Positions 26,285-27,884 of a stretch of 33,231 bases of DNA are shown in pieces. Source of the DNA: a virus (Duplodnaviria; Heunggongvirae; Uroviricota; Caudoviricetes). How positions within the stretch are numbered: position 1 is the first letter of the stretch; each line of letters opens with the position of its first letter. The notes under the pieces are model-generated. The model had not been told where the DNA came from. It worked only from the letters and a program-made list of their open reading frames with translations, and made no database searches. The position numbers and the translations under genes are program-made. The stretch is from IMG/VR virus record IMGVR_UViG_2874956758_000003; one strand, given 5' to 3'.

Positions 26285-26626
26285 AGCCTGCTTCTCCTTG
26301 CCTTCCGGCACGTAAGAGGCTAACCTACGTGTGCAAGTCATAGATATGGCCTCAGATTAATGTTAAGCGTCCTGCAAGACGCGTAATGTTAACTGGGGCT
26401 TTTCTCTGTCTGCCTTACAGTGGCATGCCCGAGGCAGACAGCCTCAAGCACCCGCAGCCATTCTACTTAACCTTTTAGCTGTTTCCAACATTTTATCTTT
26501 GCACCAAAATTCGCTCGCAACCTATCGATAAATCTAGAATTTTTAAATTAATAGATTGCAATAACATGCGATGTTCTCTTTAACCAAAATCAGGTCACAC
26601 AAAAACCATTCTACAATCCTTGTTGA

Positions 26627-26645
26627 ATAATTATCTGATAATTGT
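26627..26645 (+). promoter_or_regulatory. near-palindromic candidate operator upstream of the XRE-HTH gene
   Basis: ATAATTATC-T-GATAATTGT (one mismatch between half-sites), ~55 bp upstream of ATG 26700, overlapping -35/-10-like hexamers (TTGAAT ... TTTAAT). Confidence 0.4.
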
Positions 26646-26699
26646 TTAATGTATCTTCAATGGTAGTAAAAGACTACCTCCCTTGATTAGGAGGTCACA

Positions 26700-27095
26700 A
26701 TGCAAGTTACAGCTCTTGGTAGGTTCTTACGGAAAATCCGTATTGATAAAGATCAGATATTGAAAGACATGGCAGAAAAACTTGGTGTGAGTGTCGCTCA
26801 ACTTTCTGCAATTGAATTAGGTAAGCGTTCAATATCTGCTGATTTTGTAGACAAATTCATGAACGTTTATGCAGACACAGTCATCAGCAGAGATGATTTT
26901 CAATGTCTGGTGGACGTATCTCAACCAGTTCATAAAGAAGATTTTAAGAATACTTCTTGCAAGCACCGAGAATTGTTCGTCACCTTTGCGCGTAAGTATA
27001 AAGAGCTTCCAGAAAGTGAAGCAAATGACTGGCTTGAGAAGATAAAAAAATGTAAGGTCAAAGTCAAAGATGAAACAAAAGCGATTACTGTGTAA
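26700..27095 (+). CDS. XRE-family helix-turn-helix transcriptional regulator with a C-terminal domain of unknown function
   Basis: 131 aa; strong RBS AGGAGG; N-terminal HTH ...LRKIRIDKDQILKDMAEKLGVSVAQLSAIELGKRSIS...; ~70-aa C-terminal extension. Confidence 0.75.
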   Translation: MQVTALGRFLRKIRIDKDQILKDMAEKLGVSVAQLSAIELGKRSISADFVDKFMNVYADTVISRDDFQCLVDVSQPVHKEDFKNTSCKHRELFVTFARKYKELPESEANDWLEKIKKCKVKVKDETKAITV

Positions 27096-27243
27096 TAAAG
27101 TAAATTTTATTGCTCCTCAAACCATATGGAAAGTTGCTGCCGCCGCGCGCCAAAAAGCAAGGTAGTATCTCCCAGCGACATCGGATCCTTCAATTGACAT
27201 TGTTAGGTTATTAGACAGGCTAAACGATACCGGTGCAATTTCG

Positions 27244-27627
27244 ATGGAAATTTGTGAAATTCATGAAATGCCGCATGAGTATGCTAAGGCAAGACCTGCA
27301 TTAGGCGAGTTATACGTACGTAAAGACACTTACATTAATGCAGCAAACGGCGTACCACGTGATCGTTTTACTCTGGCTCACGAATTAGGGCATTTAATTC
27401 TTCATGCGGATGTTACGCCTGAATTTGCTTTCTCACAGACATCCTCCAATCATGACTTTAGAGAGGACGCAGAATGGCAAGCAAACGAATTTGCCGCTTG
27501 GTTCTTGGTTGATCCGCAAGAGAAAGAGATGATCAAAACCCCAAAAGAAATTGCTGTTAACTCCAAAGTTAGCCATGAAGTCGCAGGGATCTTGTGGAGG
27601 AAATTTCGTGAAAACCAGATCATTTAA
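27244..27627 (+). CDS. ImmA/IrrE-family (COG2856-like) zinc metallopeptidase, short form
   Basis: 127 aa; HEXXH motif HELGHLILH followed ~30 residues later by EWQANEFAAWFLV (third zinc-ligand region typical of ImmA-like proteases). Confidence 0.7.
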   Translation: MEICEIHEMPHEYAKARPALGELYVRKDTYINAANGVPRDRFTLAHELGHLILHADVTPEFAFSQTSSNHDFREDAEWQANEFAAWFLVDPQEKEMIKTPKEIAVNSKVSHEVAGILWRKFRENQII

Positions 27628-27628
27628 T

Positions 27629-27656
27629 CGGCAAAAGAGCGCCAACTCTTTTGCCG
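27629..27656 (+). terminator. perfect 11-bp-stem hairpin immediately after the peptidase gene (terminator-like, no U tract)
   Basis: CGGCAAAAGAG-CGCCAA-CTCTTTTGCCG starting 2 nt after the stop codon; followed by ATAAGG, not a U-run. Confidence 0.4.
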
Positions 27657-27788
27657 ATAAGGATAACGATTCTGAGAGCTTACTCACCGCTCTTAGAGCA
27701 TCACTACCCGCCTACTTAATGATTCACACCTTTAGTGTAGGCGTTTTGGTGATGACTTGTAAAGGTGAGATTTACAGGAAATCAAACC

Positions 27789-27884
27789 ATGACTACAGAA
27801 ATGAACGCCAAAGGCGAAGAAGTTGTGATTGTGTTTACCCCGTACATTACTCGTGGTGGTAAACGTATTTTTAAGAAAGATGGT
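27789..27884 (+). pseudogene. 5' fragment (32 codons) of an unknown gene truncated by the IS30 left end
   Basis: ATG 27789 with AGGA 8 nt upstream; MTTEMNAKGEEVVIVFTPYITRGGKRIFKKDG then the IS30 terminus at 27885. Confidence 0.3.

Follow-up and report, generated by a model that had tools for sequence, protein, structure and literature searches.

A probably inactivated accessory cassette in a Shigella dysenteriae prophage: an XRE-type repressor, an ImmA-type protease and a small protein preceded by a structured leader RNA

Pairs formed by an XRE-type repressor and an ImmA-type protease belong to the commonest regulators of mobile genetic elements, and their targets are seldom known when the pair does not serve as the immunity switch of the element. 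For some of them a cleavage is described: in Deinococcus, a COG2856 protease cleaves the repressor DdrO, a type of cleavage that we predict by analogy for the locus described here, and the protease CapP cuts its partner CapH between F82 and R83 (doi 10.1101/2022.04.27.489752). The locus in question lies in a 33,231-nucleotide stretch of DNA from a tailed-phage-type virus (Caudoviricetes; IMG/VR record IMGVR_UViG_2874956758_000003), the whole of which we refer to as the window, and whose sequence is completely identical over 5.2 kb to that of Shigella dysenteriae CP026831.1. A first-pass annotation prepared from the letters alone had marked positions 26342-27884 as a cassette with a helix-turn-helix (HTH) protein and a short ImmA-like peptidase, divergent from hok and deprived of its downstream gene by IS30. 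According to the reading that we prefer, and to which we assign a probability of roughly 0.55, this interval is an inactivated copy, residing in an S. dysenteriae prophage, of a self-contained three-gene accessory (moron) cassette.

The intact layout of the cassette consists of a promoter with its operator, a gene for a 118-residue XRE repressor, a gene for a 185-residue ImmA-type zinc protease, a leader of about 160 nucleotides, a gene for a 47-residue beta-protein (open reading frame 3, ORF3), and an intrinsic terminator. In the window, the following parts can be recognised:

26609..26627, plus strand: conserved operator candidate TTCTACAATCCTTGTTGAA, consensus TTC[T/A]ACA-N5-TG[T/A][T/A]GAA, overlapping the -35 box
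26623..26650, plus strand: putative cassette promoter, with -35 TTGAAT (26623-28), a 16-nucleotide spacer and -10 TTTAAT (26645-50)
26627..26645, no strand assigned: near-palindrome of the first-pass annotation, within the spacer between -35 and -10
26662..26695, plus strand: two overlapping hairpins of the 5'-untranslated region, GGTAGT..ACTACC and ACCTCC..GGAGGT, the second pairing with the Shine-Dalgarno sequence of gene 1
26700..27095, plus strand: gene 1, XRE/CapH-like repressor, 131 residues here and 118 when intact (Pfam HTH_3 and HTH_31, PADLOC capH)
27070..27627, plus strand: gene 2, ImmA/IrrE-family zinc metallopeptidase, 185 codons with an amber codon at 27163-27165; intact in relatives and in a sister strain
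27625..27788, plus strand: structured ORF3 leader RNA, recognised by its fold z-score and covariation and matching no Rfam family
27789..27884, plus strand: ORF3, the first 32 of 47 codons for a small basic all-beta protein (MTTEMNAKGEEVVIVFTPYITRGGKRIFKKDG / GYYRLEIPKDKYRQR), aligned with loci that lack the insertion sequence
27885..29105, plus strand: IS30 copy truncating ORF3, its transposase frame split into 93 and 309 residues

This view rests to a considerable extent on copies of the cassette that are free of IS30. Three of 5426 complete Escherichia coli genomes (CFSAN029787, RMDEC364 and VL46) carry intact copies that are 99.3% identical to the window, with RefSeq genes for a 118-residue HTH protein, a 185-residue ImmA/IrrE metallo-endopeptidase and a 47-residue hypothetical protein. 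Reading past gene 2 in such IS-free loci, as the first-pass annotation had proposed, reveals an intact third gene of 47 codons, followed by a GC-rich stem with a T-run, i.e., a canonical terminator, and then by convergent phage genes. The truncation of the third reading frame, which starts at 27789, was seen correctly: its own sequence stops with codon 32, the IS30 end (TGTAGATTCAATTGG...) takes over at the 27884/27885 junction, and reading on into IS30 yields a 53-residue chimera annotated as hypothetical protein PU849_21720 of S. dysenteriae. The suspicion that a regulated partner was lost at this border did not hold, as the cassette lacks here only 15 codons and the terminator and no large cargo.

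The second gene had been described as a short ImmA-like peptidase of 127 residues encoded at 27244-27627. Its coordinates, its HELGH signature (27379-27393) and the downstream motif segment EWQANEFAAWFL are all as reported, and an EWQANEFA motif accompanies HELGH; its family assignment is borne out by a match of its product to Pfam Peptidase_M78 (PF06114; E 1.5e-13, 51.1 bits, cut-off 22). Its shortness, in contrast, is an artefact of mutation. The translation shows that the 127-codon frame is continuous with an upstream frame that begins at 27070, the sole separator being a TAG at 27163-27165 where all relatives have CAG; since this 185-codon frame is broken by a change absent from relatives, the short form represents a truncated pseudogene, and the IS-free relatives as well as a sister S. 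dysenteriae strain encode 185 residues. A natural short isoform can be dismissed, as the proteins of all relatives measure 170-188 residues, and a 127-residue homologue in the JGI collection (P0007) proved to be a gene call from an internal start within an intact frame of 183 codons. The product also matches the PADLOC capP profile (E 3.9e-13) and many RmrA models, in each case over the catalytic core only, and its best PDB sequence match is CapP (7t5t, a 291-residue chain of which residues 82-146 are aligned). As 185 residues leave no space for them, this ImmA is devoid of the linker and GAF domains.

Gene 1 was placed accurately at 26700-27095 behind an AGGAGG Shine-Dalgarno sequence (26689-26694), and its XRE-type HTH is recovered by profile searches (Pfam HTH_3, E 1.5e-7, 31.8 bits, cut-off 23; HTH_31, 31.9 bits, cut-off 27). 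Together with the M78 match of gene 2, this supports a pair of the repressor/anti-repressor-protease kind. The C-terminal region, which the first-pass annotation could not place, is predicted to be a linker followed by a two-helix hairpin of the CapH/DdrO/SinR type: the AlphaFold2 (AF2) model of the repressor (pLDDT, predicted local distance difference test score, 88.9) shows an XRE domain of five helices, which an extended linker (75-86) joins to a hairpin (87-117) made of two helices at 87-100 and 105-117. Over its full length the protein also follows the PADLOC capH profile, with residues 4-117 matching positions 5-97 of 103 (E 4.3e-6). Its fold and profile matches are XRE repressors, namely phi106 AimC, ClgR, DdrO, SinR, the HTH domain of CapH and ICEBs1 ImmR (7t8i), several of which are cleaved or antagonised by a partner protein; among PDB sequences, the phi106 repressor from the structure with AimX (9sf2, E 6e-10) ranks first against the family profile. 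HMG-box-like PDB matches of the C-terminal 47 residues, along with a weak match to Pfam HMG_box, were discarded as chance. Within the first helix of the C-terminal hairpin lies F96-A97-R98-K99 (FARK), which is near-invariant among 57 homologues.

How the copy in the window decayed can be read from a three-way alignment with the IS-free copies, which reveals CAG>TAG and an F>S exchange in the protease, Y87C (26959) and A8>A7 (run 27044-27050) in the repressor, and four substitutions in the promoter. Through the A8>A7 slip the last residue of the repressor is swapped for a 14-residue tail. The sister strain L115 (S. dysenteriae GCA_031665835.1) shares the IS30 insertion and the promoter changes and possesses an intact repressor and an intact protease; within the cassette it differs from the window at three positions only (26959, the A-run 27044-27050, and 27163), all of them disruptive and lying within 205 bp. 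Because L115 carries the IS30 cut together with intact regulators, the disruption of ORF3 came first and the decay of the regulators later. The three disruptive changes would thus suggest decay, or selection, after the loss of ORF3, and, judged from these lesions, the cassette in this window is presumably dead.

In the promoter region, a dyad with at most one mismatch to the operator consensus is present at -72 to -119 from the start of the HTH gene in nearly all loci that carry the three genes, in Proteobacteria and Firmicutes and in groups as far apart as Enterobacterales, Bacillus and Oscillospiraceae; the -35 element TTGAC coincides with the right half of the dyad, which is perfectly palindromic in Providencia, Bacillus methanolicus and L072 (L numbers designate loci and contigs of our comparison). 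The 19-bp near-palindrome that had been put forward as the operator is real, with complementarity at 11 of 13 positions between its arms (26623-26635 and 26637-26649), a value that is modestly above chance in that 29 of 2000 dinucleotide shuffles of the 225-nucleotide promoter region reach it (1.5%). However, this element lies between -35 and -10, has arms that match at no more than 10 of 13 positions in the E. coli relatives, and is without a conserved counterpart in Pantoea, L008, Providencia and other hosts. From its conservation, the dyad should therefore be the better operator candidate. A second operator (at most one mismatch) was found in no locus near ORF3, near the divergent genes or within about 5 kb. 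L104 (~2818-2870), L105 (~2808-2860) and L006 (5534-5590) have the dyad doubled, at a distance of about 20-25 nucleotides, in front of the repressor gene itself, example copies in these loci being TTCTACAATTATTGTTGAA and TTCTACAAAAAGCGTAGAA.

A simple consensus scan of the sequence did not flag the putative cassette promoter. The relatives have TTGACT and an extended -10 with TGg, and L072 and L082 show a near-consensus TTGAC(T/A)-N17-TATAAT/TAAAAT at the equivalent position. Of the 11 differences that separate the window from the E. coli copies, four are packed into a 26-bp stretch of the promoter and operator (26618-26643; at 26618-19, 26627 and 26643), and the substitutions in this stretch are common to both S. 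dysenteriae genomes. The C>A exchange at 26627 betters the half-site (GTTGAA) and weakens the -35 box, and G>T at 26643 removes the TG of the extended -10; going by the letters, we infer that both changes would lower expression. The hairpins of the 5'-untranslated region are kept in the window, E. coli, Pantoea and L008, with a CTCC/GGAG counterpart in Providencia.

Between gene 2 and ORF3 the cassette contains what appears to be an undescribed leader RNA with a pseudoknot supported by covariation. The spacer measures 161 nucleotides in the window and 141-238 across the loci, and it folds far more stably than shuffled sequences (z -7.3 in the window, -5.95 in Providencia). Its elements are the following:

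27627-27658, plus strand: hairpin H1, with perfect 13-nucleotide arms (27627-27639 and 27646-27658) straight after the ImmA stop codon
27670-27698, plus strand: hairpin H2
27683-88 with 27764-69, plus strand: pseudoknot between the H2 loop (CTCACC) and GGTGAG
27699-27754, plus strand: hairpin H3
27756-27778, plus strand: hairpin H4, overlapping the Shine-Dalgarno sequence of ORF3
27757-27765, plus strand: invariant motif TTGTAAAGG

The hairpin that the first-pass annotation noted behind gene 2 with an 11-bp stem is thus real and perfect, and its arms are longer than stated. Twelve divergent spacers aligned by MAFFT show compensatory changes at all 7 pairs of H2 and an invariant UGUAAAGG about 30 nucleotides upstream of the start codon. 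The bases behind UGUAAAGG are complementary to the H2 loop in its 3' half, and both sides covary (CUCACC/GGUGAG, GCUACC/GGUAGC, UAUGCC/GGCAUA and UCGCC/GGCGA). For H2 and the pseudoknot taken together, 89% of cells are paired as opposed to 39-46% with slid partners, and the covariation score is 0.71 versus 0.13-0.19 with slid partners, a value that none of 500 shuffles reached. One long hairpin (H3) of 62-65 nucleotides is found between H2 and the motif in all twelve sequences despite their unrelated sequence; this statement rests on independent folds of equal length and not on a covariation count, as H3 cannot be aligned between subgroups and RNAalifold gives no pairs there. Since G-U pairs and the long-range covarying pairing favour the plus strand, we read the spacer as a plus-strand RNA, and the same features speak against a DNA recombination site. 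The overlap of H4 with the Shine-Dalgarno sequence suggests a translational gate.

A covariance model built from the E. coli subgroup finds, besides the leaders of Serratia and L012, a full-length leader in front of a stand-alone ORF3 paralogue in L008 (E 8e-6), from which it follows that the leader travels with ORF3; with default filters the model missed the leaders of Providencia and L108-110. Leaders elsewhere lie at 10285-10448 (L001), 6556-6705 (L006), 5928-6099 (L013), 2328-2489 (L012) and 4912-5095 (L008). No Rfam 15 family matches the leader at gathering score in the 12 loci or the window, and E values of up to 10 return noise only. The L008 paralogue (5080-5217; 45 residues, 44% identical) is a second ORF3 gene, situated about 400 nucleotides upstream of the three-gene set on the same strand. 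Loci with a DUF4417 gene in place of ORF3 (e.g., L026 5877-6103, L030 2158-2474 and L090 5873-6215) have spacers of 190-350 nucleotides with hairpin loops UUGGCG(C/A), and the same motif recurs in the ORF3 leaders of Providencia and Bacillus, whose H3 loop contains it as UUUGGCGA; the DUF4417 spacers in the L013-L092 set have no Rfam match. Judged by these motifs, the DUF4417 leaders may be relatives of those in front of ORF3.

ORF3 itself is translated, as the differences among its copies fall mainly on third codon positions (158, 130 and 365 differences at the three positions). The AF2 model of its product has five strands (pLDDT 85.9), and fold neighbours were not found for it. Among 1.84 billion proteins, its profile retrieves 78 representatives at E<1e-3, nearly all of 40-60 residues, with the consensus V.I.TPYITRNGKRIY...GG.FR..IP..KYR; all their database names read "hypothetical protein". 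Our best guess is that ORF3 acts as a nucleic-acid-binding effector in phage-host or phage-phage conflict.

The three genes recur as a trio in Enterobacterales, Pasteurellaceae and Firmicutes, on one strand and at near-constant spacing, at varying sites of the prophages, and with products of similar size (HTH protein, 116-122 residues; ImmA, ~175-188; small protein, 42-48). Among the 14 IMG/VR viral contigs with an ORF3 relative, 9 carry the trio. Examples are:

L003-5: trio in Pantoea ananatis
L006/7: trio in Providencia, small reading frame uncalled
L008-10: trio in an enterobacterial prophage, between Q and the lysis genes
L012: trio in a metagenomic element, directly upstream of a P4-type integrase gene
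L013: trio in Serratia
L093: trio in a phage with a small protein named from Glaesserella
L097-99: trio in a stretch with RelE/HTH and AbiH genes, a defence-island-like context

A census of 80 genomic loci with the repressor family, mostly from Firmicutes, found in the slot after ImmA an ORF3-like gene in 11 and a gene for a DUF4417 protein in 43, an occupancy that has the appearance of a regulator pair with exchangeable cargo. In L107 (3197-4114), the repressor is followed by a 125-residue reading frame that resembles the N-terminal region of ImmA and is devoid of the HExxH core, then by ORF3 and lysis genes; this variant may be another decaying copy.

At its left side the cassette is shorter than had been assumed. 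The genes were found where the first-pass annotation put them, and the cassette is indeed AT-rich (34-44% GC versus about 50% in the flanks), but the first ~110 nucleotides of the interval given there (26342-26453) belong to the hok/sok locus:

26279..26453, minus strand: sok antisense RNA with hok/mok leader (Rfam RF01794, 111.7 bits, gathering score 59)

This hok/sok backbone (query bases 1-133) is present in more than 4000 E. coli genomes without the cassette, so the cassette proper begins near 26475. The cassette genes consequently do not belong to the hok/sok type I toxin-antitoxin locus, which stops at 26453, and hok, a part of the prophage backbone, falls away both as the divergent partner and as a divergently regulated target. 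The divergent neighbour indeed varies among the loci (hok, a 77-residue gene or a 71-residue gene).

These data lend themselves to a model for the intact cassette. Repressor dimers would bind to the dyad over the -35 box and thereby keep expression of the operon low. A stress cue, by analogy DNA damage or an infection-derived signal, would allow the protease to cleave the repressor, likely at or near F96-A97-R98-K99, a segment of the helix with which the C-terminal dimerisation hairpin begins; this site is suggested by CapH, since it is in the equivalent helix that CapP cuts between F82 and R83, and F96-A97-R98 is the near-invariant segment. Transcription would then run through the leader into the small gene, with the pseudoknotted leader and its last hairpin over the Shine-Dalgarno sequence putatively providing an additional gate on translation. 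The small basic beta-protein would be the output. A more far-reaching version of this model is possible, and we hold it only tentatively, with the balance tilting against it: the conserved unit might be a new RNA-plus-small-protein device, with a protein of the TPYITRxGKRIY family, under a damage-responsive switch, an undescribed system of anti-phage or inter-phage conflict in Proteobacteria and Firmicutes. Its leader could then be a riboregulator that senses a ligand or a protein, or an RNA partner or antidote as in type III toxin-antitoxin systems, and, if this version were true, DUF4417 would be an alternative cargo behind related leaders.

Several observations weigh against the accessory cassette with ORF3 as its output. 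Searches of Pfam, PHROGs, NCBIfam and PADLOC returned no family for the small protein; the protease aligns to the capP profile at positions 56-113 of 242 only, and a 185-residue ImmA does without the linker and GAF domains that CapP and IrrE use for sensing single-stranded DNA. The three changes found only in the window could include assembly errors, the A-run being a homopolymer. Further counter-arguments concern the coupling of ORF3 to the pair. Stand-alone ORF3 genes exist, and ORF3 is for this reason not dependent on this repressor: the L008 paralogue (4912-5217) has a complete leader and no HTH/ImmA pair directly upstream, and four viral contigs (L111-L114) contain ORF3 relatives with the pair being absent. 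The strong H1 hairpin, a perfect 13-bp stem right behind the ImmA stop codon, could limit read-through, and the leader may carry its own promoter. From these points one can construct an unlikely, yet coherent, alternative in which ORF3 and its leader form an autonomous unit, H1 acts as an insulator, and the neighbouring XRE/ImmA pair regulates itself or acts in trans. Against it count the adjacency of the genes at a spacing of ~140-240 nucleotides in more than 25 independent loci across phyla, and the order of events in Shigella, where the regulators decayed only after ORF3 was disrupted. Moreover, H1 has no U-tract, no sigma-70-like site was found on the plus strand of the spacer, and the sole canonical terminator lies after ORF3.

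About equally improbable is a role of ORF3 in feedback instead of output, as a small anti-repressor or modulator of the switch in the manner of AimX on AimC or SinI on SinR. There is precedent for small proteins that keep short XRE repressors from oligomerising (doi 10.1101/2025.11.23.689978), the AimX-bound phi106 repressor is the best PDB match of the repressor profile, and SinR is among its fold and sequence matches. Yet such a regulator-only module would have no conserved output, and no second operator exists within ~5 kb in any locus; ORF3 also occurs without this repressor, the same slot of relatives holds a DUF4417 protein of 200-250 residues, and ORF3 is predicted to be all-beta and not a helical hook. 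We give still less credit to a two-gene toxin-antitoxin pair of the XRE/COG2856 kind (Makarova) with the protease as toxin, the HTH protein as antitoxin and ORF3 as an incidental neighbour. Such pairs are abundant in prophages and were predicted to be toxin-antitoxin-like (PMC2701414), ImmA matches the RmrA antitoxin models of RosmerTA defence systems, and in the window the protease is knocked out with the HTH protein nearly intact. The same study, however, prefers a system of three components with the repressor as substrate of the protease, the protease-containing protein of RosmerTA is the antitoxin and not the toxin (PMC10440598), and the conserved third gene with its leader argues against ORF3 being incidental. 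The least probable of the alternatives, to which we attach very little weight, is that the cassette serves as the lysis/lysogeny switch of the prophage as do ICEBs1 ImmR/ImmA or the phi105 repressor, a role for the pair that was considered at the outset. The protein families and the co-directional order of repressor and protease are the same, and the trio of L012 directly upstream of a P4-type integrase gene recalls immR-immA-int. But the L008/L009 prophage lineage possesses, elsewhere, a separate LexA-like CI (HTH and Peptidase_S24) along with Cro and CII-like genes, and the lambdoid carriers place the cassette between hok and the nin genes or between Q and the lysis genes, in most cases pointing against early or late phage transcription and with its own terminator. 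On these grounds the cassette is an accessory add-on and not an immunity switch; its operator, furthermore, is found only at its own promoter.

On its right side IS30 is followed (29106-33231) by part of an IS3-family element, which carries the annotation IS600 in matching E. coli genomes, and then by a module with DnaT-like and replication-protein-P genes on the plus strand. As the orientation of this module is opposite to that in IS-free relatives, the prophage has been rearranged at the cluster of insertion sequences. Elsewhere in the window, an intact 383-residue reading frame at 4263-5414 on the minus strand has what we take to be the length of the IS30 transposase, the correspondence being one of length. 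Recurrent reading frames of 272 residues (at 3360, 12712 and 29184) and 301 residues (at 11689, 21137 and 32326) are spread across the window, Rfam reports a match to CssrB (Shigella sRNA B) on the minus strand at 1286-1468, and a cluster of four tRNA genes at 23625-23932 corresponds to the tRNA-Gly/Thr/Arg/Ile cluster of E. coli relatives, which is located there between a DNA-methyltransferase gene downstream of Q and the lysis genes.

In practice, little follows for this particular Shigella genome beyond treating the locus as a pseudogenised remnant and not reading its "short ImmA" as a natural variant. The trio as such, however, offers a defined apparent output in the form of a tiny conserved protein, a testable conserved operator and a structured leader RNA, and the intact copies in sequenced E. 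coli isolates make the question of what accessory switches of this kind target experimentally approachable.

Among the described systems, ICEBs1 ImmR/ImmA and the phi105 repressor with its ImmA homologue resemble the trio in that a short XRE repressor is followed by a co-directional, stand-alone M78/COG2856 protease without GAF domain. The ImmA of ICEBs1 is similar in size to the 185-residue protein, and in ICEBs1, too, a further gene in the same orientation lies downstream. This gene, however, encodes an integrase there and a 47-residue protein behind a structured leader here; operator and regulon differ; and the pair of the cassette is not the master switch of its element, which in the case of L008/L009 has its own CI. 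Control of excision or lytic genes, a hallmark of the ICEBs1-type pair, finds no counterpart in an operator elsewhere within ~5 kb. AimC/AimX and SinR/SinI share with the trio a short XRE repressor without autocleavage domain that is paired with a very small protein, but AimX is a 29-residue anti-repressor under the control of AimR and LexA, and ORF3 is unrelated to it in sequence, predicted to be all-beta and also found without the repressor. With DdrO/IrrE of Deinococcus the cassette has in common an XRE repressor with a C-terminal dimerisation domain, DdrO being among the top sequence and fold matches; IrrE differs by its HTH-like and GAF domains, by its chromosomal DNA-repair regulon and by genes that do not form a mobile trio.

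The RosmerTA systems and the three-component XRE-COG2856 scheme likewise occur on mobile elements and join an HTH and an M78 protease to a partner that varies and has often not been characterised (PMC2701414, PMC10440598). An XRE HTH protein and an adjacent HExxH-containing M78 gene, the two constituents of the XRE/COG2856 module, are both present in the cassette, the latter with a premature TAG in the window. The three-component logic of RosmerTA fits, and RmrA models are matched by ImmA; RmrA, however, is a single HTH-protease protein (PADLOC models of 357-400 positions), whereas two genes are found here, and the matches to the RmrA models cover the HTH only or the protease core only. As to the RmrT toxins, which are diverse and often without family (PMC10440598), ORF3 matches no PADLOC model. 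Close parallels are offered by CapH/CapP (Lau et al. 2022, doi 10.1101/2022.04.27.489752): the repressor possesses the HTH and the C-terminal two-helix oligomerisation domain that characterise CapH and matches the capH profile end to end, a conserved F-x-R lies in the first of the two C-terminal helices, the one that is cut in CapH, the best PDB match of the protease is CapP, and in both cases a regulator pair is combined with exchangeable cargo. CapP differs by its linker and GAF domains, an often present cysteine-switch loop and its sensing of single-stranded DNA, none of which the protease of the cassette has; at 185 residues, and with a profile match confined to the core, it does not show the composition of a CapP, i.e., a peptidase joined to an HTH-like linker and a GAF domain. 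The capH and capP genes, moreover, lie upstream of and divergent from the operon that they control, whereas the conserved partner is found here downstream and on the same strand. The cassette is hence best filed as a module of a known kind, to which ImmR/ImmA, DdrO/IrrE, CapH/CapP, RosmerTA and the three-component system put forward in 2009 belong, and as a novel form within it that combines a split ImmA-type pair with a small-protein cargo of its own and with a leader RNA for which Rfam 15 has no family.

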